Shown: positions 3,731 through 13,880 of the stretch, in pieces
Layout: every line of letters starts with the position of its first letter
How positions within the stretch are numbered: position 1 is the stretch's first letter
UHGV virus genome: UHGV-1775278
Direction: 5' to 3' (one strand)
Source: a virus
DNA length: 13,880 nt
Made by a program: the position numbers and the translations under genes
Notes under the pieces: generated by a model
The model's input: the letters and a program-made list of their open reading frames with translations, nothing else
Database searches by the model: none
Told to the model about the DNA's origin: nothing

Positions 3731-6700
3731 TTAGGCCGCATCGGCGATTATTTTACGCAGTTCATCTACCGAGTAACGCGTAGATACCATCCATGCCGGA
3801 CGGTCAAAGTTCACATCAGCAACCGGGTTTGCTTCAAAATTCCAGAAACGCCCGCCAATCTTCTTAATCGCGTCCTTGGCGTTCCGTATTGTCGAGGAAC
3901 CGGGCTGATCGGCAATGAGATAAACGGCTCCCACATCTTCACTGACACTCCACCAGCGCCCGCGAACACGGGCTTTAGCGCGAATCGGCTTATCATTAAC
4001 CACAATGATATAGTCATCATTCGCCGCTTCATCAGCTCTGGCTTCAGCCACTGCCGCCTGCTCTTCTCTTTTGCTTTCAGCCTGCTCAAGCCTTTCCGCG
4101 ATCTCTGATTCAGTGGCCCCGCCGTTTTTCAGCGATACATAGTCCTGCCACGTTGCCGATTTGAGCGCATCCGGCAACTCATTCACATAGTCGCCGTCTT
4201 TCAACTCACGGGCGCGACGGGTAGCCATTTCTACCAGGCGATTAACAGAAACAGCATCAGCAAAATCGTCCTTACTAATGTGTTTTTCATCAAATGCATT
4301 GATGACAGCCCCCACCTTAATCCACTGCGCTGCTGGCGAATCCAGAGGATTATCGGCCTGAACAATGGCTAATTTCGCTCCATCGACACCATTATTAGCC
4401 AGCTGCTCCAATGCCGACCAGCCATCGGCATCGCTGAGTGATTTATATTGCTCAAACAATGCATCGCGCCAGGCCACCAGCGCAGCTCGTGTTTTCTCAA
4501 TTTTCGCCGTAATTTTCGCGGCCTTCACCTGATTAAACATCCGTTCAATGTCATCAGTGTTGCTAAAGGCTTTCATCCTGCCCTGGAATAAACGGTATGC
4601 CACCACGGTCTTCCAGAAAGATTCCAGCCCTTCTCCGGACGGTTTACGGAACAGGCTAAGAATATCTTCAGAAGTAACTTTATTAAGTGAGCGACTGGAC
4701 AAACCACGCCCTGCCATCCAGTTTTCAAACTCCTGGGAAACATCATCCATCGTGGCCTGTGCCCCCCATGCCTGCATTCCCTGGATGTAATCATATCCAT
4801 ACAATGCCTGGAGGAATCCCTCGCCGTCCACGACATTCAGCGGGTTATCACTGGCTTGTATTTTTGCCACTTCACGCTTCAGCGCCTCATCGTTGCCATC
4901 AGGGTAAATCCACCGCTCAGGCGCTATATCCGATGCTCGCCCGATTTTTTGACCTATTACGCCATCATAAGCCGATGACAGTGCAATCTGACCATCATCG
5001 GTGCGATAAGCCCAGTATTTAATAGCTGAACCACCGCCCCATACTCTACCAGGCTTCCCGGCAGTGACATTCATTACCCCATTGCGAATAGCATCATAGA
5101 ACTGATCGCGCGTAAGTGTTGTTGATAGCTGGTGGCATTGAACACCACGTGCAGCTGTTTCACGCGATTCTGCAACTCCCTCTTCAAAGGTTACCGATTC
5201 AATTATCAGGTTAAAGGGCAAAAATAATGCCGTACCCGGAGAACGAGAGTAACGACTAGCCACATCCAGCCAGGATATGCGGCACGTACACCCGCCCCTT
5301 TCCGCATCAATGGCGGTAACACGAACAATTGCTGTCGTATTGTGATTCTCATCGATGATCGCGCGATAATGGCTGTCCTTGTGCAACAAGATATTTTTCT
5401 CAGTGCGTACATACTCCTGTGGGTTCTGCAATACATCGGCATCAAGCTCCAGAACCCCGGCTTTAATCGCACGTTCCAGATCACCACGGGAACGTTTCAT
5501 AACGGTGTCAGCGTCTTTAGCTCTGGTGATCGCAAAGCGTAGCTCCCGCACACGTTTTCTGTAGTCTCGCAACTGTTCCAGAACATATTTCTGCCCGTTC
5601 CTGTTCGTCCCCGCTTTAATCAGGTCGTCAAGATTGCGCTGGTAATGCTCTACCTGCTCCATCGCGCTTTTCAGTTCTGTCTCCATCATGCCGATATCTT
5701 TCCCGGCAGCATTCGCCGCTTTCAGGTAGTTATCGAGAGCATTATTGGCTTCGCGTAGGGCTTTCAGTTTCAGACGTTCTTCACGCTCTTGCGCCTGACG
5801 ACTCATGATTGCACGGCGTTCTTCCGGATTTGCCGCCAGCATAATGGCGCGTTCATCTGCGTCATCCGCATCACCATTGGCGATCTCTGACATGTCGGAG
5901 GTCATCACCATATTGATCCAGTCCTTCTTACGTTTCAGCGTATCCAGACGGAAGTCGTCGAATGTGCCTTTGCCACAATAGTAGTGAACATTGACCTTTT
6001 CTTGCGGTGAACCTACGCGCGCACCGCGCCCATTTCGTTGGTCGATACTGGCTGGTGTCCAGGGTAGTGTCAGGTGGTGGATATCGGTTGTCCCGATGTG
6101 CAGGTTAATACCTACTTCAGCCTTCTTGTTACAGATTATGATGCGCGTGCGACCTTCGTTATAGTCGGCGGCAATACCTTCCATGCCCTCAAGGCCAGCA
6201 TCATTTTTAGCTGAGAGATAATCCTCATATTGGGCAAGTTTGCTGTAGTAGGTTTCCCATGCACCTTCTTTGTATTCACCGTTTTTATTTGGCGTAGGTT
6301 CAGTAGGCTTATTCACCTTCTTCAGCTTGACGCCGCCAGCCTGGCTAACTGTCGTCGCATTGATAATGCCTATCTCCTGCTCCGGCATTTGCAGTGCACT
6401 GGCAATAATACGGCGCAGCTTCTGGTGCTGGGCTTTTTCATCAATGAAGACGATTTGTTTACCGTTCTTCAGACCTTCACGAAGGTTTTCGATCAGCGCG
6501 GCATACTTCGGCGGGATGGGGTGTGATACCTGCTGCATATCAATACCGGCAGCCGCAATGGCCTTCAGTATTTCAGCTTCCAGTTCAATGCCAGCACGTA
6601 TTTCAACATGCGACGGATGTTCGCTAAAGGTGGTCTTCACTACCTTGCTGGTACGCGTACTGACCAGCCCACCAGCGCCATCTTCTTCGGCCTCGTCTGC

Positions 6701-9700
6701 ATCATCTGCCACTTTACCGCCAGCTACTTTTGGCAGGGCATCAGCAATAGCTTTTACCTTGTCTGCAAGCTCAACGGGGAACTGGAATGTAATCGCACTG
6801 GCATACAGATCAGGATCTATAGCAACCTTATCCATGTCGCGGATGATGGAGAAGATGAAATCATCCGGTTTTTCGTTTGTGATATGCCCGTTTTCATCGA
6901 CCGTCAGCGCATCTTTACTACTTAACTCCTGTGCACGCTTACGAAGTTCTTCGTAAATGGCCTCTTGCTCTCCTGTCATCGGGATCTGCAAGGTATTCTC
7001 GACAATATCAGGGATTTTTACCGTCGCCCCGACGTCCGCAGCAGTCTTCAGAGTAGTCCAGCGATGGAAAATACCACGCAGACCATCCAGGTTCTGGAAG
7101 CCCACCAGCCCCTGCTTCTCTTCCACCTCACCGGAAATTTTCTGAACCTGAACTGTGGCTGTTTTACCGAACACGCGAACGAAATCATCCGGCGTAACAA
7201 TACCCATGCGCATCCACTCTTCCTGCGGAATGACAGTAGACAGCATGTTGAAAGCATCAATCGGGCTGTTCACCAGCGGTGTTGCCGTCAGCATAACCAC
7301 ACCACGCCCGTTGTTGCGTTTCATCATGTACGCAGCTTTTACAGCCATATCACGAGCCATTTTGGATACTGCCGGGTTAGGCAAATATGCCAGTTGCCCC
7401 GCTTCGCGCCCGGCGCTAAAGGAGTTGCGGTAGTTATGCCCTTCGTCGGCAATTACGCTATCGAAGTTCATATCCTCAAAGTACGGGATATTCTGCTTCT
7501 TCGTTGTACCGGTATTTGCGGCCTGGTCCTTAATCTTGTTCTTCTTCTGCGCGTCACGGTGTTTGCCAGATGCCAGGTCAAGACGCCCCATTTCCACAGC
7601 ATTAAAGACCGCTTGCTGTGAGTTTTCCTCAATGGTTTCTTCTCGTAGCGGGATAGACGCGAATTGCTCTTTTGTCATGATGACCGTTCGCCAATTTGAC
7701 GACGGGATCATGTTCATGCGCTGAACGATAACGGCGCTGGCGGACTCTTTCACAACATTTCTGGTAAGAGCCTGCCCGTTACTGTCGAGGCGTGGTTCGC
7801 CATTTTCATCAAGCACCGGCGCGGTCAGAATATTTCCGCTGTCATCACGAACTTCATCCAAACCGATAAACATCATATTAGCGAAGGCATCAGCACTGTA
7901 GAAACTCTGTGCCTCGTGATACCAGTTCTGATAAACCGCCTTCGGAACAACAATACACGTGCGTTTAGTGCGACCTGTTTCGAAGTTATACGCCTCAAGC
8001 GCAAGCGCGGTCGTGGTTTTACCCAGCCCGGTGCCAAATCCCATGATGCCGCGCCCATCTTCTGATAAGCGACGAACTTCTTCATTCTGATAAGTCAGAG
8101 GAATGCGCTTCCCACTAATCCCCTCCAGGCCAAGCGGTGCGTCAGAATGCGTAAACGGGATGAAGCCATTAAATGCGTCGTTATAGTCGCGGGCTATCTG
8201 ATCAGCCTGCGGGTGAGTGCGTAACCAGTCGTTGAAGCTAATTTCCAATTGAGCAATCTTATCCAGGTACTCGTTAGCGTTCTGCCCACGCGGTTTAATG
8301 CCGTTCAGGTAGTTTTCTAACTGGTTCAGGAAGCCGTCTTTATTGTTGGCCTTCTTGAACTCATTCCCGTTTTTGCCGTTTACGGTTCGTAGTTGATAGC
8401 CAGTAAATACCCCGTCCTTACCTTCGTAATCGTCCGGAGATACCAGAATGCCGTCCTCAACCTTAAGGTCGGGTTCTGTATACTTAAACTCGTCATAGCC
8501 CTGCTCTGCCAGGAACTCTTTTATCAAGCGGCGATCCAGCCAGCGGGCGTTCAGATTAACGGTGACTTTATTTAGTGGCGTGAAAATGCGTTTCTCTTCG
8601 ATTTTCGCCAACTGACGCTCAAAGTTCGCTTTCTGCTCACCTGTTGACGCATCACGCCAGCCCACCAGCAATGCTGTTTTGGTTGCAATATCGCCGCTGG
8701 TGGCGCGGTCCATCGGCAGCAGGCAGCCATACCCATCAATAGCGATATCATCAAATTTCGCCAGGTATTCCAGAGCAGCATCGTCGTCTCCTGGCAGTTC
8801 GCCAGCAAACGCCTCACGAAAATCGTCCAGTGTGATTGGATTAAGTGCCACGTCACTGAAAAGGTGGGTTACAACTTGTTCCGGGCGTGTAAAATCAATA
8901 CCGGCAGCACCATCCGTTACATCAAGTCGTCCAGCAAGGAGGTCAGAAGCAGAGCCGTCCTGTTTCACGTTGCCAGTGAAAGTCATCCAGTTTTTAGCGC
9001 CAGCTTCAGCAATCCCATTCAGCTTAATCGCGTGCGGCGGACCATACTTCGCAATTTCGGCTTCCGCCAGGCGCGCGGCATCAGCAAGTTCATCATCAAC
9101 ATTTTCCCCCAGATTACGCTTATCAAGCGCCTTGTTGATCAACTGCCCTATCAGTGCGCCGCGCATAACGCGTTCTCTGTCTTTTTCTCTCTGCTTGCCA
9201 GCAAAGCGAATCATTGCCGCTACTTCATCACTGATAACCGATGGATAGTCGGACGCGATCGCCGATATCTGGTCCCATGACAACGCCAGAATGCCATTTG
9301 TTGACTGAAACGCGATCTGCAGATCGCCAAACGTCGAAACACCATATCGGCTTACATCAAGCGCGGAGGATTTGGTTGTCGTGTCCTTGACCCATTTCAG
9401 GCCATCAAACTCATGCCAGATGCCGCCTACAAGGCGTTTATCGCCCACTTTCGCGCCCTGCCATGCCTGAGTAGTTACGCCGAGCAAATCCCAATTAATG
9501 CGGCTTTCAAAGCGGCGCGATAGAGCGGTTTTCATCGACTCATTGGATACACGACCGTCCTTTTTCACCACCAGGGTATTGCGGAAGCTGGTACGCTCCA
9601 TATCGCCGTAAACAAATCGCTTCCCTTCGGTTGTAAACCATTTTCCTTTGAGGAAGGTATCCCAAAGGACGTTTGCCGATTTGAGCGTCGAATCATCCGT

Positions 9701-10687
9701 ATCGGGGATCATCTCCAGAAAGGCTTCCGGGTGTTTACGCAATACCCATACGTCCACCACGGTATCTGTACCTGATTCACTGAACGTACCGGAAGGCATA
9801 CGATGCGCGCCCAAAAATTCCGCTTTACGGCTGACTTTATCGCGCAATTTTTTGTATTTCGTACCATCAGTCATGCCATTCGGCACCACCAATACGATAA
9901 GCCCACCAGGTTTAACCTTGTCGATCGTGCGCAGCACAAAGTAATTGCCAACGTTCTTCTCGTTTGCATATGCCGGATCAAGCCCTGCAACGCCGGAACG
10001 GCCTTCGCCAAACGGTACGTTACCAACAGCGTGATCATACATTGCGTCTTTCGCCGCCAGAGCCTCGAACGCCCCAATGTTCACATCGTCTTCCGGGTGC
10101 AACAGCTGGTTGATTCGACCGGAGATCGGAGACAGCTCGGCGCTGGTCATTATCATTCCCTGCCGTTTTGTCTCCTGGAAAATACCCGTGCCAGCTGATG
10201 GTTCCAGTACGTGACCGCCATCAATACCGTAGTCAGCAAACAGCTCCCATATACCTTCAGCCATAAACTGTGGTGTGTAGTATTCGTATTGACTGCCTTC
10301 GCCGTCAGTAAGGCCGCCTTCACCTGTATACCCTGCAAGAATCTGACGCTGTTCGTCAGTTAATTTCGCCCCATCGAATCCGGGCGGAAGGGAATTAAGA
10401 AGATCTACTGCGGCGTTGTTTGCTGCCCGCCGTGTTTTTTGAATGCTGACACCATCGACTTTCTTAACGCCAAAGGTCGCAACAGATCGCGGTTTATGCA
10501 ACCGACTAACAATTTCAATCAGCGCCCCAATGCTGGTGGCCTGGCTAATTGAATCAATTATTTTGTCCAAAGGAAGCCCCCTCAAAACCGTTAAATCCGC
10601 CTGTAGCGGTACGGTTTGAAAGGGTATGGAGTGTGTTAATTTGGAAGAATAAGAGCGGAAAAGGTCAGGCGATACGAACGAACTCAC
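3731..10687 (-). CDS. Giant fused N6-adenine DNA methyltransferase / SNF2-like helicase (2318 aa), DarB-like anti-restriction candidate
   Basis: Single 6.96-kb ORF. Codons verified by hand: methyltransferase motif I LEPSAGTG (10184-10207) and motif IV NVPFG (10007-10021); helicase Walker A GFGTGLGKTT (8012-8041), motif II DEGH (7436-7447), LTATP motif and motif VI QRNGRGAR (about 6017-6040). About 760 C-terminal residues have no recognised domain. GTG start with weak Shine-Dalgarno. Confidence 0.9.
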   Translation of the reverse strand: MSSFVSPDLFRSYSSKLTHSIPFQTVPLQADLTVLRGLPLDKIIDSISQATSIGALIEIVSRLHKPRSVATFGVKKVDGVSIQKTRRAANNAAVDLLNSLPPGFDGAKLTDEQRQILAGYTGEGGLTDGEGSQYEYYTPQFMAEGIWELFADYGIDGGHVLEPSAGTGIFQETKRQGMIMTSAELSPISGRINQLLHPEDDVNIGAFEALAAKDAMYDHAVGNVPFGEGRSGVAGLDPAYANEKNVGNYFVLRTIDKVKPGGLIVLVVPNGMTDGTKYKKLRDKVSRKAEFLGAHRMPSGTFSESGTDTVVDVWVLRKHPEAFLEMIPDTDDSTLKSANVLWDTFLKGKWFTTEGKRFVYGDMERTSFRNTLVVKKDGRVSNESMKTALSRRFESRINWDLLGVTTQAWQGAKVGDKRLVGGIWHEFDGLKWVKDTTTKSSALDVSRYGVSTFGDLQIAFQSTNGILALSWDQISAIASDYPSVISDEVAAMIRFAGKQREKDRERVMRGALIGQLINKALDKRNLGENVDDELADAARLAEAEIAKYGPPHAIKLNGIAEAGAKNWMTFTGNVKQDGSASDLLAGRLDVTDGAAGIDFTRPEQVVTHLFSDVALNPITLDDFREAFAGELPGDDDAALEYLAKFDDIAIDGYGCLLPMDRATSGDIATKTALLVGWRDASTGEQKANFERQLAKIEEKRIFTPLNKVTVNLNARWLDRRLIKEFLAEQGYDEFKYTEPDLKVEDGILVSPDDYEGKDGVFTGYQLRTVNGKNGNEFKKANNKDGFLNQLENYLNGIKPRGQNANEYLDKIAQLEISFNDWLRTHPQADQIARDYNDAFNGFIPFTHSDAPLGLEGISGKRIPLTYQNEEVRRLSEDGRGIMGFGTGLGKTTTALALEAYNFETGRTKRTCIVVPKAVYQNWYHEAQSFYSADAFANMMFIGLDEVRDDSGNILTAPVLDENGEPRLDSNGQALTRNVVKESASAVIVQRMNMIPSSNWRTVIMTKEQFASIPLREETIEENSQQAVFNAVEMGRLDLASGKHRDAQKKNKIKDQAANTGTTKKQNIPYFEDMNFDSVIADEGHNYRNSFSAGREAGQLAYLPNPAVSKMARDMAVKAAYMMKRNNGRGVVMLTATPLVNSPIDAFNMLSTVIPQEEWMRMGIVTPDDFVRVFGKTATVQVQKISGEVEEKQGLVGFQNLDGLRGIFHRWTTLKTAADVGATVKIPDIVENTLQIPMTGEQEAIYEELRKRAQELSSKDALTVDENGHITNEKPDDFIFSIIRDMDKVAIDPDLYASAITFQFPVELADKVKAIADALPKVAGGKVADDADEAEEDGAGGLVSTRTSKVVKTTFSEHPSHVEIRAGIELEAEILKAIAAAGIDMQQVSHPIPPKYAALIENLREGLKNGKQIVFIDEKAQHQKLRRIIASALQMPEQEIGIINATTVSQAGGVKLKKVNKPTEPTPNKNGEYKEGAWETYYSKLAQYEDYLSAKNDAGLEGMEGIAADYNEGRTRIIICNKKAEVGINLHIGTTDIHHLTLPWTPASIDQRNGRGARVGSPQEKVNVHYYCGKGTFDDFRLDTLKRKKDWINMVMTSDMSEIANGDADDADERAIMLAANPEERRAIMSRQAQEREERLKLKALREANNALDNYLKAANAAGKDIGMMETELKSAMEQVEHYQRNLDDLIKAGTNRNGQKYVLEQLRDYRKRVRELRFAITRAKDADTVMKRSRGDLERAIKAGVLELDADVLQNPQEYVRTEKNILLHKDSHYRAIIDENHNTTAIVRVTAIDAERGGCTCRISWLDVASRYSRSPGTALFLPFNLIIESVTFEEGVAESRETAARGVQCHQLSTTLTRDQFYDAIRNGVMNVTAGKPGRVWGGGSAIKYWAYRTDDGQIALSSAYDGVIGQKIGRASDIAPERWIYPDGNDEALKREVAKIQASDNPLNVVDGEGFLQALYGYDYIQGMQAWGAQATMDDVSQEFENWMAGRGLSSRSLNKVTSEDILSLFRKPSGEGLESFWKTVVAYRLFQGRMKAFSNTDDIERMFNQVKAAKITAKIEKTRAALVAWRDALFEQYKSLSDADGWSALEQLANNGVDGAKLAIVQADNPLDSPAAQWIKVGAVINAFDEKHISKDDFADAVSVNRLVEMATRRARELKDGDYVNELPDALKSATWQDYVSLKNGGATESEIAERLEQAESKREEQAAVAEARADEAANDDYIIVVNDKPIRAKARVRGRWWSVSEDVGAVYLIADQPGSSTIRNAKDAIKKIGGRFWNFEANPVADVNFDRPAWMVSTRYSVDELRKIIADAA

Positions 10688-11009
10688 CGTCTATTGCGTG
10701 TTCACCCCCGGCATCATCTCGCATAACAGCACACTGACCTGGAAGGCCATAACGAACAACCATACAACGAACACCATCGCCACAACCGCTCTGAGTCCTG
10801 TTTTGTCTCCTCTCATACGATTTTACCCGTTCAAGTGTTCGCCTTGTTGATTCGAGATAATACTGTTTGTCGATTGCATCCGTACTATGCAGCAAGTAAG
10901 CCACCCCGGACACATCAAACGGAGGCGATCCAATCTCCATTGTCACCCACTCACGGTTATCCGGTTCAAAGTAGCTGAGTATCTCTTTTTTTCTTCTTGT
11001 CAGTCTCAT
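10665..11009 (-). CDS. Hypothetical protein (114 aa) whose 3' end overlaps the giant gene start by 23 nt
   Basis: ATG at 11009 with GAGG 8 nt upstream. Sits directly downstream of the palindromic control region. The C-terminal third is low complexity, so the true extent is uncertain. Confidence 0.5.
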   Translation of the reverse strand: MRLTRRKKEILSYFEPDNREWVTMEIGSPPFDVSGVAYLLHSTDAIDKQYYLESTRRTLERVKSYERRQNRTQSGCGDGVRCMVVRYGLPGQCAVMRDDAGGEHAIDGEFVRIA

Positions 11010-11020
11010 GTTTGCAACCT

Positions 11021-11052
11021 CTTATTGTGGGATAGCTCTATCCTACAATAAG
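11021..11052. promoter_or_regulatory. 32-bp near-perfect palindrome (CTTATTGTGGGATAG ct CTATCCTACAATAAG), candidate operator
   Basis: 15-bp arms at 11021-11035 and 11038-11052 with one mismatch. Lies 12 bp upstream of the 114-aa gene start, in the divergent region between the giant-gene operon and the lysin gene. Confidence 0.6.
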
Positions 11053-11067
11053 AAACGTAACAACATT

Positions 11068-11083
11068 TATGATTTAAATCATA
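11068..11083. promoter_or_regulatory. 16-bp perfect palindrome TATGATTTAAATCATA, candidate operator
   Basis: Exact self-complementary 16-mer in the same divergent intergenic region, 16 bp from the 32-bp palindrome. Confidence 0.5.
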
Positions 11084-11243
11084 TGGTTAATTAATGAGAA
11101 AGCTCAAACATTCAGTATACGGTTAACACTCAACATGCCACGGACAAGGAAGGCTTAGGGGCGTACCGGGGTAAGAAAATTGCTGCCATGAAAATCACAT
11201 ACTCCCCATAGTTTATGTTCATTTGTTAATCAGAGGGGTAGTT

Positions 11244-11729
11244 ATGGTAAGTTCCGATCCTCGTTGGCTGATGGAAGCCCGTAAACATATTGGCCTGACC
11301 GAAATCAAAGGGGCTAAACACAATCCTGAAATCGTCCAGTTCTGGCGGGATATTAAACGCGGTGGGATTAAAGACGATGAAACTCCGTGGTGCGCAGCAT
11401 TTGTTGGCGCAATGTTAGAGCGTGTGGGTATCCGCTCAACAAGATTTGAGTCGGCAAAATCCTATCTGGATTGGGGCGAGAAACTGGATACACCAGCATA
11501 CGGATGTATCGTTGTATTTACCCGCGTAGGCGGTGGGCATGTAGGCTTCGTCGTCGGACGCCGCGCCAATGGCGATCTGCTTGTCCTTGGTGGGAATCAG
11601 GGGGATGCGGTGAATATTCGCGCATTCCCGACATCAAGAGTGTCGGGCTATCGCTGGCCTGCTGGCGAACCACGCAATACAGCTCTGTTACCAGTCGGAG
11701 ACGCAGCAACCTCAACCAATGAGGCATGA
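11244..11729 (+). CDS. Papain-like Cys/His hydrolase (CHAP / NlpC-P60-like, TIGR02594-type), candidate endolysin
   Basis: ATG at 11244 has GAGGGG 5 nt upstream; the ORF-track start at 11223 is a TTG with no Shine-Dalgarno. Candidate catalytic Cys in ETPWCAAFVGA and His in GGGHVGFVVG, spaced as in CHAP-type amidases. Only plus-strand gene in the window. Confidence 0.75.
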   Translation: MVSSDPRWLMEARKHIGLTEIKGAKHNPEIVQFWRDIKRGGIKDDETPWCAAFVGAMLERVGIRSTRFESAKSYLDWGEKLDTPAYGCIVVFTRVGGGHVGFVVGRRANGDLLVLGGNQGDAVNIRAFPTSRVSGYRWPAGEPRNTALLPVGDAATSTNEA

Positions 11730-11761: not shown

Positions 11762-11959
11762 TCAAGTCACGATCCAATCATTACCGACTATATCAGCCGT
11801 CGCTAAATCAACTTCCCGGATCTGGAGTCCATTAATACAAAACCACCCGGTAGTAGAGCAATTATCAGGCCAGGCCCATACACCAACACTCCATGCTTTA
11901 CGGCGGCACACTTCAGCCTGTCCTTCGCTGATTTTTTTTACCGCCTGCATGATGTCCAT
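11762..11959 (-). CDS. Small 65-aa protein, paralog of the 2152-2352 gene; tentatively DUF2829/Tad2-like
   Basis: ATG at 11959 has GGGGAGG 6 nt upstream and overlaps the Rha stop (TGATG). Carries the shared motifs GQAEVCRRKAW ... IVGNDWIVT. Last gene before the terminator. Confidence 0.55.
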   Translation of the reverse strand: MDIMQAVKKISEGQAEVCRRKAWSVGVWAWPDNCSTTGWFCINGLQIREVDLATADIVGNDWIVT

Positions 11960-12666
11960 CACTCACCTCCCCAACCGATCACCTGGAATTGCCCCATTTT
12001 GGGGTGATACCAGCGTTTTCCTCGGTGTTCAGCCTCAGACATCATCCGGTTAAAGGCATTCATAAAGGGAGATAAGGCCACAATAGAACGACGCGACAAT
12101 ACCCCCTCTGGCGTTAAAAACTCATGCGTATCGGTGGGGATACGGTAAGCATTGACCAGGTTACGGCATTTGGCTTCAGTCAGGCCGCATTTCGCCGCTA
12201 ACTGGCGGTAGCCAATGTAACCATCTGGCATGTTACCCTTCTTGATTTGCTCGACGGTTTCTACCACCTGGCTAACCTTTGACTCAACAACATGAAGCCG
12301 CTTTTGCTGCTGAACTGCATTTGCAGCCATTGCGGCGATCATCTCTATTTCGGTCAACGGCTGGCGTACTTGTTCTTCCAGTTCGCGCCAGCGGTCCACC
12401 AGCCGGGCGGTGAATTCCGGAGAGAGCTGCGCAACGACAATAATGCTGTCTCGTTTGCCTTGCTCGCCTTCGAAGACGTAAGCCTCGACACTACGGCGTA
12501 GTCCTAAGTTATTGATTTTTTCGAAAACCTGCAATGCAGGAAGTTGAATAACTCCAGATTTAGCCAGGCGCTCTATTGATATTTTTACGTTATCTGGACG
12601 ACTTCCCACCAGCTCCGCGATCTCAATGCTGGTCATTGATGGCTTTTCAAGAATGCAGATATCCAT
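11959..12666 (-). CDS. Rha-family phage regulatory protein (antirepressor-like)
   Basis: N-terminal MTSIEIAELVGSRPDNVKISIERL matches the Rha-family start pattern. Preferred start is the ATG at 12666 (GGAGG 7 nt upstream, ATGA overlap with the upstream ORF stop); the ORF-track start at 12711 has no Shine-Dalgarno. Confidence 0.8.
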   Translation of the reverse strand: MDICILEKPSMTSIEIAELVGSRPDNVKISIERLAKSGVIQLPALQVFEKINNLGLRRSVEAYVFEGEQGKRDSIIVVAQLSPEFTARLVDRWRELEEQVRQPLTEIEMIAAMAANAVQQQKRLHVVESKVSQVVETVEQIKKGNMPDGYIGYRQLAAKCGLTEAKCRNLVNAYRIPTDTHEFLTPEGVLSRRSIVALSPFMNAFNRMMSEAEHRGKRWYHPKMGQFQVIGWGGE

Positions 12667-13088
12667 CAGTGTGCCTCCGCAATTCCGGGATTGGTAATAT
12701 TGCGATACCAAGGATTAGTGTTTGGTTGTGATGAAGTAGAGAAACGGCCAGTCAGGACGCCATGTTGATCAGGGATCAGAGAACGGGCTTCTTTTTCAGT
12801 TGCGGCAATTGCGAAGTGATCACAGTGTTTTTGCAGGGAGTGGAAACGCCAGATAAATTCCGGGCGCGAGCAAGGATTGGCATTAACCATAGTTACGGCC
12901 TCATTCGTAGGTTTAACAACCTGCGCCCCGCTGCTAAACGGGTGGCAGGACGTGACGGGGTTAGCAGACTGGCACGAATGAAACCAGCAGGCCGAAGCCT
13001 CCCCATCACGCCCCACCATAATTCGGGCGTAACGTGGTTTTACGGACACAAAAATACCGCAATATCGGATATCTGCGGTTGTCCGCAT
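12666..13088 (-). CDS. Hypothetical Cys/His-rich protein (140 aa), uncertain
   Basis: Open frame between element copy 5 and the Rha gene, ending in an ATGA overlap with the Rha start. Six Cys and several His (CWFHSC, SCHPF, HCDHF). No convincing Shine-Dalgarno at either candidate ATG, so it could instead be a long 5' leader. Confidence 0.35.
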   Translation of the reverse strand: MRTTADIRYCGIFVSVKPRYARIMVGRDGEASACWFHSCQSANPVTSCHPFSSGAQVVKPTNEAVTMVNANPCSRPEFIWRFHSLQKHCDHFAIAATEKEARSLIPDQHGVLTGRFSTSSQPNTNPWYRNITNPGIAEAH

Positions 13089-13240
13089 TCGTATTCAGGC
13101 TGCTAAACCCGGTCGCAGAATTTGCTACGACGACATGAATATAAGCCTGAAAACATGGAAGATCAACTAAAAATTTCAGCAATGGATGACTTCAGTCGAT
13201 GATGCAGATCATACATTCCGATTTAGAAACAGCAAATTAA

Positions 13241-13250
13241 TTTTCTAACA
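13241..13250 (-). promoter_or_regulatory. Copy 5 of conserved element TTTTCTAACA, with inverted partner TTAGAAA 12 bp away
   Basis: Lies in the intergenic region between the stop of the partial gene (13305) and the 140-aa ORF / Rha operon. TTAGAAA at 13223-13229 is the reverse complement of TTTCTAA at 13242-13248. Confidence 0.5.
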
Positions 13251-13304
13251 CAAATTATCGGGCGAGCATTTTCCGATCATTGGGATGCTTTGTAGACACA
13301 CAGG

Positions 13305-13880
13305 TCATCCCCTAAATCCCGCAGGGATTAACCAATCCTCACGGTCAAATTCAGACCGATAGCCACGCTGTTTCATCAGGTCAAAGGCTTCACCAATGGT
13401 TGCACACCCCTGGGAGCCAGAATAATCCATTGAGAAATCCAAGGCACTGGATTGTTTAGGCTTATTCACTGCGGTAGCGGCACTACGTATCCATGCAAAT
13501 TTTTTTGCCAGCTTTTCAGCGGTACGATACAGAGCCTGCCGTTTTGTGTGCCCCTCGTCTGAACGACGCTTTGCAGCTCTCGCTTTTGCCGCCGCCAGGC
13601 AGTGGTTGGTATGTTCTTCCCTGATTACTGTTTTTTTATCCAGTACCCCGTTATCCGTTTGAGAACTATCTGCTGGTGAAGCCTTTGGCTGAACCGCGCA
13701 TGATCTTTCTCTTCTTTTGGCTATAGAGTGACTCTTATTTTCTATTGGCTGTTCATTTTGAACATGGGGGGACTTGTTCAATTTGAACAGGGGGTTCCCA
13801 GTTTCAAAAAAATAACGAACCTTTGAAATCAACTGCTTAACCAGTTTTGTGGCGTTGGCAAATTTGATGCCCTGCTTACC
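13305..13880 (-). CDS. Hypothetical protein, 5' end outside the window (partial)
   Basis: The minus-strand frame is open from the window edge to the TGA at 13305-13307; the ORF-track TTG at 13832 is probably internal. Basic, Ala/Lys/Arg-rich middle region. No family recognised. Confidence 0.5.
   Translation of the reverse strand, partial: GKQGIKFANATKLVKQLISKVRYFFETGNPLFKLNKSPHVQNEQPIENKSHSIAKRRERSCAVQPKASPADSSQTDNGVLDKKTVIREEHTNHCLAAAKARAAKRRSDEGHTKRQALYRTAEKLAKKFAWIRSAATAVNKPKQSSALDFSMDYSGSQGCATIGEAFDLMKQRGYRSEFDREDWLIPAGFRG

Follow-up and report, generated by a model that had tools for sequence, protein, structure and literature searches.

Two palindromes lie in the 234-bp spacer (11010-11243) to the left of a lysin gene in the virus genome UHGV-1775278, and their position raises the question of which gene each of them serves. 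An earlier note on this DNA took both to be operators of a dimeric regulator, through which an anti-restriction operon and the lysin gene would be controlled together. We analyzed the whole stretch of 13,880 nt that contains the spacer, referred to below as the window, and compared it with related phages, plasmids and chromosomal loci.

The sequences and coordinates of both palindromes were confirmed. Palindrome P1 (11021-11052) is a 15-2-15 inverted repeat, CTTATTGTGGGATAG-CT-CTATCCTACAATAAG, with arms complementary at 14 of 15 positions and a single mismatch at G11029/T11044; a repeat search widens it to 16-nt arms (11020-11035 and 11038-11053, 94% complementary). We propose that it is the operator of the small gene beside it, possibly combined with a core promoter. 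Palindrome P2 (11068-11083) is a perfect 16-bp palindrome, TATGATTTAAATCATA. Not one repeat like palindrome P1 (15-nt arms, no more than one mismatch, spacer no longer than 4 nt) arose when the window was block-shuffled 100 times, and palindrome P1 is clearly non-random.

Replicon and gene map

The window is 100% identical to part of the E. coli plasmid p92_MLI108-1 (NZ_CP116989.1, 92,487 bp), which encodes a pacase, portal and tail proteins, RepL, icd/ant, Lpa and ParM. Judged by sequence, this replicon is a D6-like, phage P1-related phage-plasmid of E. coli. Replicon-wide counts given below refer to the whole 92-kb plasmid.

To the right of the spacer lies the lysin gene (11244-11729, plus strand, ATG at 11244), which encodes a CHAP/TIGR02594 family peptidoglycan hydrolase and reads rightward as previously described. 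The giant gene, however, is not the leftward neighbor of the spacer. That place is taken by a small ORF of 114 aa (10665-11009, minus strand, ATG at 11009-11007), whose product is a predicted winged-helix protein. The giant gene itself (3731-10570, minus strand) is DarB-like and combines a methyltransferase with an SNF2 helicase. A mechanical ORF list puts its start at GTG 10687, which would overlap the small ORF; comparison with phage D6 and the presence of its own Shine-Dalgarno sequence support TTG 10570 as the likely start, giving a protein of 2279 aa. The replicon also carries two icd plus Rha/antirepressor (immI-like) modules, at 12674-13737 and 47778-48906 of the plasmid record, one of which has a truncated Rha gene. 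The icd-Rha module in the window (11762-13088) is convergent with the lysin gene.

Predicted late promoters of the lysin and giant genes

When k-mers of the spacer were screened for recurrence in the replicon, the sequence that stood out was AAATCACATACT at 11192-11203, and the palindromes did not. With up to one mismatch, the box AAATCACANACT occurs 9 times in the replicon where 1.7 occurrences are expected. All nine boxes are intergenic and point in the sense direction. A start codon follows each at 39-146 nt (mostly 39-59), and the genes downstream encode tail, portal, head, holin and lysin functions. Each box is followed by exactly 3 nt and then by an nAnnnT hexamer; we write the class as AAATCACANACT-N3-(T/C)AnnnT. 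Late-promoter boxes were located in NZ_CP116989.1 at 6408, 10916, 53220, 54667, 58444, 66584, 75248 and 85627 (also at 32625 and 88398); the class stands upstream of essentially every structural or lysis operon of the replicon, and the same set is present in phage D6. In the first 46 kb of D6, the box was found 6 times against 0.8 expected, before the genes lysin, prt, ddrB, lydA, R and pmgB, and again each box is intergenic, in sense and within the range of 39-146 nt; darB is preceded by a two-mismatch copy.

The lysin late promoter in the window (11192-11212, plus strand) consists of the box AAATCACATACT (11192-11203), 3 nt and the -10 hexamer CATAGT (11207-11212); both box and -10 are identical to those of the D6 lysin. 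A candidate late promoter for the giant gene (10621-10641, minus strand) has the box AATTAACACACT (10641-10630), CCA and the -10 hexamer TACCCT (10626-10621). This box is a two-mismatch copy situated between the stop codon of the small ORF and the TTG start at 10570, and D6 darB has AAATAACATTCT-CCA-TACCCT at the homologous place.

An Lpa-like activator is encoded in the replicon (L001:32193-32585, minus strand; phrog_1704 "Lpa-like transcriptional activator", E = 7.6e-60), and the D6 record annotates orf4 as lpa-like. The Lpa-dependent late promoters of phage P1 (LPlyz, LPdar and LPpro) consist of a 9-nt "-22 region", 4 nt and a -10, and the GenBank record of phage P1 shows late promoters of like layout, in which a short spacer separates a box at -22 from the -10 and a -35 is missing. 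The class described here resembles them in having a box at a fixed spacing from the -10 and no -35, in recurring before head, tail and lysis operons, and in the presence of an Lpa homologue in the replicon. It differs in the box itself and its spacing: the window and D6 have AAATCACANACT with a 3-nt spacer, whereas phage P1 has a AAGTGACTT-type box with a 4-nt spacer. The D6-lineage late box, AAATCACANACT-N3-(-10), is defined here from sequence. We conclude that the lysin and the giant gene would each be driven by its own Lpa-type late promoter outside both palindromes, and we infer that these two promoters depend on Lpa. This corrects the regulatory map of the locus, in that the lysis and anti-restriction genes would be assigned to Lpa-type late promoters and the palindrome to an inserted accessory gene.

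The spacer as a composite

In D6, the darB-like gene and the lysin gene are divergent and separated by a 151-bp spacer in which the late boxes stand about 30 bp apart; this D6 spacer contains neither palindrome and no small ORF. Window positions 10545-10641 align with the start, leader and promoter of D6 darB, and positions 11189-11213 align with the D6 lysin promoter. Between them, a segment of 547 bp (10642-11188) stands in place of 20 bp of D6 and holds the small ORF and palindromes P1 and P2. A 1.2-kb query matched 117 plasmids, a handful of which share sequence left of the lysin, and the remainder match only rightwards from window position 11161, 11191 or 11256. Because most D6-like plasmids match only from these points, we place a mosaic boundary within the spacer. 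On this comparison, the spacer of about 234 bp is a composite, in which a cassette has been inserted between two back-to-back late promoters, and not a single divergent control region.

The proposal that palindrome P1, palindrome P2 or both serve a dimeric regulator coordinating the giant-gene operon with the lysin gene is hard to reconcile with these data. The palindromes do lie between divergent genes, and palindrome P2 overlaps a promoter-like -10. Against this, the same gene pair exists in D6 without either palindrome, both genes have late promoters of their own outside the palindromes, and in most D6-like plasmids the shared sequence is confined to the part rightward of 11161-11256. Palindrome P1, moreover, travels with the small ORF to places where neither the lysin nor the giant gene is present. 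We consider coordinated control of the two genes very improbable.

The earlier note had also looked to further copies of the palindromes elsewhere in the replicon. No second copy exists in the 92 kb for palindrome P1, with up to four mismatches allowed per half-site, or for palindrome P2, with up to four allowed per 16-mer. The lack of further copies rules out a regulon operator and is compatible with a local, autoregulatory one. Palindromes P1 and P2 differ in this respect from regulon operators such as the C1 operators of phage P1. The replicon likewise has no recurring perfect inverted repeats that could serve as a regulon signature, and no matches to, or enrichment of, the phage P1-type C1 operator consensus. 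The sequence ATTGCTGCCATGAAAAT at 11179-11195, just left of the lysin late box, agrees with that consensus at 11 of 17 positions; it is kept in cassette-bearing relatives and missing from D6, and the replicon shows no similar sites elsewhere and no enrichment. Likenesses to a Fur box and to an IHF site were poor matches by eye and were dropped.

Linkage of palindrome P1 to the small ORF

Among distant BLASTN matches, Klebsiella and Raoultella plasmids of unrelated content share window positions 10830-11061, which comprise the 5' half of the small ORF and palindrome P1, and nothing beyond. A protein search extended this association: in every locus that holds the start of the ORF (about 30), palindrome P1 is found at -45 to -14 from the ATG. 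These loci comprise 28 species representatives and others reached via their encoding contigs, and they come from Yersinia, Serratia, Erwinia, Pantoea, Mixta, Buttiauxella, Lonsdalea, Klebsiella, Enterobacter, Kluyvera, Shimwellia, Tatumella and Symbiopectobacterium. Upstream of palindrome P1 the loci have unrelated DNA, and conservation begins exactly at the palindrome.

The linkage holds when the search is made with DNA only. Of the 23 sites that a palindrome pattern matched in IMG/VR, every one precedes the start codon and N-terminus of the family ORF, which is intact in 22 cases and truncated in one. The palindrome is present in 442 of 5426 complete E. coli genomes (about 8%), almost always once per genome. 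Given the fixed-distance linkage, the unrelated flanks and the lack of covariation between the arms described below, palindrome P1 is most likely the operator of the small ORF, possibly together with its core promoter. An unannotated family of 476 homologues is thereby paired with a probable DNA site, which gives a signature for finding the cassette.

Enterobacter loci downstream of fis (L034-L039) carry two tandem palindromes 50 bp apart, at 5907-5938 and 5957-5988. After the distal palindrome comes what is left, in degenerate form, of the Shine-Dalgarno sequence and start of the D6 lineage (AAGAGATTGATAATTGAAC). This looks like a recombination scar between cassettes and not a designed second operator. 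Different satellites or prophages come after the same cassette at the fis site.

Palindrome P1 as a probable DNA site

Across the family, the half-site consensus of palindrome P1 is CTTAWTGT-DK-GATA. An alignment of 31 different upstream regions gave no covariation between the arms: the score was 0.042 against 0.046 in shuffles, and 2 cells were changed on both arm sides against 2.4 in shuffles. Of the 31 sequences, 14 fail to pair at positions 13/36, 23 at 17/32 and 21 at 18/31, and each arm is conserved in its own right. Since the arms lack covariation and the three pair positions are for the most part unpaired, the alignment indicates that palindrome P1 is a DNA site and not an RNA stem. 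No terminator-like sites were found in 10900-11350; a reading of palindrome P1 as an intrinsic terminator was dropped, as no T-run follows it on either strand.

The two arms are not equivalent. The gene-distal arm reads GTATGATA and the gene-proximal arm GTGGGATA, and this asymmetry is conserved; a plain symmetric site for a dimer would not account for it. Within the gene-distal arm is a -10-like hexamer, TAGGAT (11040-11045, minus strand), which is TATGAT in most family members. On the sense strand of the ORF, T16, the invariant A17 and T21 match -12T, -11A and -7T, and the variable position corresponds to -10. The resulting pattern, T-A(invariant)-K-G-A-T, resembles a -10 hexamer in which the least constrained position is the one that varies, and either G or A is accepted at the matching position of the other arm. 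The sequence upstream of the hexamer shows no enrichment of a -35 element. As a hypothesis, the hexamer would be the candidate -10 of the winged-helix gene, with transcription starting near 11033. An alternative promoter for this gene, of the sigma-70-like type and overlapping palindrome P2, lies 40 bp upstream. If that promoter is the real one, palindrome P1 would fall at about +19 to +50, a less common position for an operator. The Shine-Dalgarno sequence of the ORF, AAGAGG (11018-11023, minus strand), overlaps the last 3 nt of palindrome P1, and either AAGGA or AAGAGG occupies the same place in all family members.

The small ORF family and a deleted allele

The earlier note saw no regulator gene in the window except Rha, which overlooks the ORF adjacent to palindrome P1. 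Its family comprises 476 homologues of ~123 aa from Enterobacterales, all labelled "hypothetical". The small ORF had no family match in Pfam, NCBIfam, PHROG or PADLOC, a sequence-profile search of the PDB gave nothing relevant, and a fold search of BFVD returned only unnamed relatives. A literature search by accession number found no paper on the family or its site, and both appear to be undescribed. The predicted fold of the family is that of a winged helix, and we predict a winged-helix DNA-binding protein, with the invariant residues E-S-T-R-R-T-L-E placed where its recognition helix starts. The C-terminal portion is a beta-rich tail with an invariant Cys.

The copy in the window carries a 27-bp in-frame deletion. 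Its junction (10830-10836, minus strand; breakpoint 10836/10835) lies between two 5-bp CTTGA repeats, and alignment of both protein and DNA, the latter with the full-length alleles in L043 and L040, shows that the deletion takes out LEAMVRDGL (9 aa), the C-terminal half of the predicted recognition helix. Plasmid NZ_AP027688, which is near-identical, has the full-length allele, as does contig L043. In the lineage of the window, the deleted allele is the commoner one, being present in 75 contigs with the full-length allele on very few. A structure model of the deleted allele was poor (pLDDT 42.6), and as it was built from a shallower alignment it does not allow a controlled comparison with the full-length protein.

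With nine residues of the recognition helix removed, the window copy of the winged-helix protein may not bind DNA at all. If it is inactive, palindrome P1 would here be an orphan operator, and the cassette promoter would be de-repressed. No terminator was found after the small ORF, so read-through into the giant gene is possible; a de-repressed cassette promoter feeding such read-through is a speculative extension of this idea.

Palindrome P2 as a probable part of a promoter

The first six bases of palindrome P2 on the minus strand (11083-11078) are TATGAT, the -10 hexamer of a sigma-70-like promoter, TTGAGC-18 nt-TATGAT (11078-11107, minus strand), that a promoter scan identified with 9 of 12 consensus matches. 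This promoter is aimed at the winged-helix gene, and its start site is predicted near 11071. D6-like relatives from E. fergusonii and Salmonella that have the same cassette retain the half TATGATTTAAA of palindrome P2 (TTAACnnTATGATTTAAA is conserved), and the other, right half reads AGTGTA in them. The TATGAT hexamer is kept in these relatives, and the -35 TTGAGC is poorly conserved.

The statistical case for palindrome P2 depends on the scale at which it is considered. The window has two perfect palindromes of at least 16 bp where 0.18 are expected, and the 92-kb replicon has two where 1.15 are expected; if just the 234-bp spacer is considered, the probability of such a palindrome is 0.004. 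The other such palindrome in the window, GCGATCTGCAGATCGC (9312-9327), lies within the coding sequence of the giant gene. Palindrome P2 thus departs only weakly from chance. It is probably part of a promoter, contributing the -10 region, and not an independent operator, and we take its perfect symmetry to be probably a lineage-specific accident.

An independent operator at palindrome P2, bound by another regulator of this plasmid lineage, would account for a perfectly symmetric intergenic site that overlaps a -10 and is rare for a spacer of this size. Against it, one half is replaced in the relatives that keep the cassette, the replicon has no second copy with up to four mismatches, and about one palindrome of this kind is expected by chance at replicon scale. 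We regard such an operator as doubtful. The idea that the palindromes are operators for dimeric regulators thus survives for palindrome P1, which is operator-like and co-travels with a predicted winged-helix gene, and has little in its favor for palindrome P2, the symmetry of which is not conserved in its closest diverged relatives.

Proposed autoregulation and its alternatives

A small gene cassette was inserted between the back-to-back late promoters of a D6-like phage-plasmid, and we propose that palindrome P1 is the operator through which the winged-helix gene in this cassette controls itself. A dimer of the winged-helix protein would bind the two half-sites (CTTAWTGT..GATA) of palindrome P1. 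Because these half-sites take in the predicted start site together with the -10-like hexamer and reach the edge of the ribosome-binding site, the protein is proposed to repress its own transcription. The conserved half of palindrome P2 would serve as the -10 of the sigma-70-like promoter reading toward the winged-helix gene, and the lysin and the giant darB-like gene would each remain under an Lpa-type late promoter outside palindromes P1 and P2. By analogy with known repressors, we judge negative autoregulation through palindrome P1, including both the putative binding and its presumed repressive effect, to be fairly likely. One point against it is that no biological role is evident for a regulator with no conserved site other than its own promoter.

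Other readings of palindrome P1 draw on some of the same observations. It could act as RNA, forming a leader hairpin in transcripts from the P2 promoter that sequesters the Shine-Dalgarno sequence and so controls translation of the winged-helix gene or stability of its mRNA. The 68-nt leader does fold at -20.1 kcal/mol (z = -3.9) with the Shine-Dalgarno sequence in the stem, and 84% of arm cells are able to pair across the family. A strong fold follows trivially from any palindrome, however, and the changes expected of a selected stem are absent: there are no compensatory changes, covariation equals that of shuffled controls, and the conserved mismatch is a C/A on the sense RNA. The leader matches no Rfam family, and because the upstream promoters differ among contexts, the full hairpin may go untranscribed in many loci. 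A function as RNA is, in our view, unlikely. A similarly low probability attaches to palindrome P1 being mainly a core promoter or a host-factor site that the adjacent protein does not bind, with its symmetry reflecting a bidirectional or otherwise unusual promoter. This reading agrees with the presence of a -10-like hexamer in each arm (sense strand, TATGAT/TAGGAT; antisense strand, TACAAT), with the conserved arm asymmetry and its invariant A at a -11-like position, and with the start of conservation exactly at the palindrome. Against it, a -35 is absent, possible -35/-10 pairs within palindrome P1 are only 13 nt apart, and conservation is symmetric over 14 nt per arm, well past the hexamer. 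The neighboring gene, moreover, encodes a predicted winged-helix protein with an invariant start to its recognition helix.

The sharp outer edge of palindrome P1 could alternatively mark a recombination or insertion site of the attC, dif or hairpin type, at which the small gene is mobilized. Homology between unrelated contexts begins at this edge, the lineage adjacent to fis has a second, scar-like copy 50 bp upstream, and the cassette sits precisely between two D6 promoters. Yet each locus has one site with no partner at the 3' end of the cassette, no recombinase co-travels with it, and what is conserved is sequence rather than structure; we also take palindrome P1 to be unlike dif or attC cores. 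We give a recombination site very little weight.

Relation to known systems

Repressors of the ArsR, MarR and BlaI types exert negative autoregulation. The ArsR/SmtB, MarR and BlaI/MecI families are autoregulated winged-helix proteins with inverted-repeat operators at their own promoters, and ArsR/SmtB operators are 12-2-12 sites. As in these systems, the two-fold symmetric palindrome P1 adjoins a predicted winged-helix gene, and the two are conserved together. The likeness does not extend to family membership: unlike MarR (PF01047), ArsR/HTH_5, BlaI/Penicillinase_R and Fur proteins, the small ORF has no significant match to a family profile. It also differs from the ArsR, MarR and BlaI proteins in its beta-rich C-terminal tail with the invariant Cys and in having no known ligand or target operon.

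Phage "morons" are autonomous extra genes with their own control signals placed between conserved phage genes. The cassette resembles them as a 547-bp unit with promoter-like and operator-like signals between two conserved D6 late promoters, missing from D6 and most D6-like plasmids, and with its gene found elsewhere at the ends of prophages, satellites and islands. It is unlike morons in lacking a terminator after the small ORF, so that transcripts could run into the giant gene, and in that its product resembles a regulator and not a fitness factor of known type. The biology to be expected is otherwise conventional, namely that of an autoregulated winged-helix gene inserted as a moron.

A more far-reaching possibility is that the palindrome and the winged-helix gene together form an undescribed self-contained cassette that moves among the prophages, satellites, islands and phage-plasmids of Enterobacterales and does more than control itself. 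In the D6-like plasmids, where it stands immediately before the darB-like anti-restriction gene with no terminator between them, its role could be Lpa-independent expression of that gene in the lysogen. The winged-helix protein would set the level of this expression, and the deletion allele found here would lift that control. We offer this tentatively and think it rather unlikely. In a bolder variant, the palindrome would also be the site at which the cassette inserts.

Genomic settings of the winged-helix gene

The winged-helix gene is typically monocistronic and lies at the ends of prophages, of capsid-bearing or P4-like satellites and of islands, with fis, xseA, dinD and an integrase remnant among its neighbors. 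Typical enterobacterial copies of the cassette are also found in two assemblies labelled as non-enterobacterial, L006 (Pseudomonas lundensis) and L031 (Chryseobacterium sp.), where they probably reflect contamination or mislabelling. In Klebsiella and E. coli, islands that are P4-like or carry an integrase have a gene of the "plasmid pRiA4b ORF-3 family" convergent with the winged-helix gene, its 3' end overlapped by the latter by a few bases; this pairing recurs in L003 (2286-3180), L075 (5046-5940) and L076 (4046-4940). In L003 (3270-3620), the interval that separates the cassette from a divergent integrase gene contains repeated TGTACAC...GTGTACA motifs, which are also present in the upstream regions of L004, L015, L019 and L031. 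These motifs are probably sites of another protein, serving as integrase arm sites or as binding sites of a regulator.
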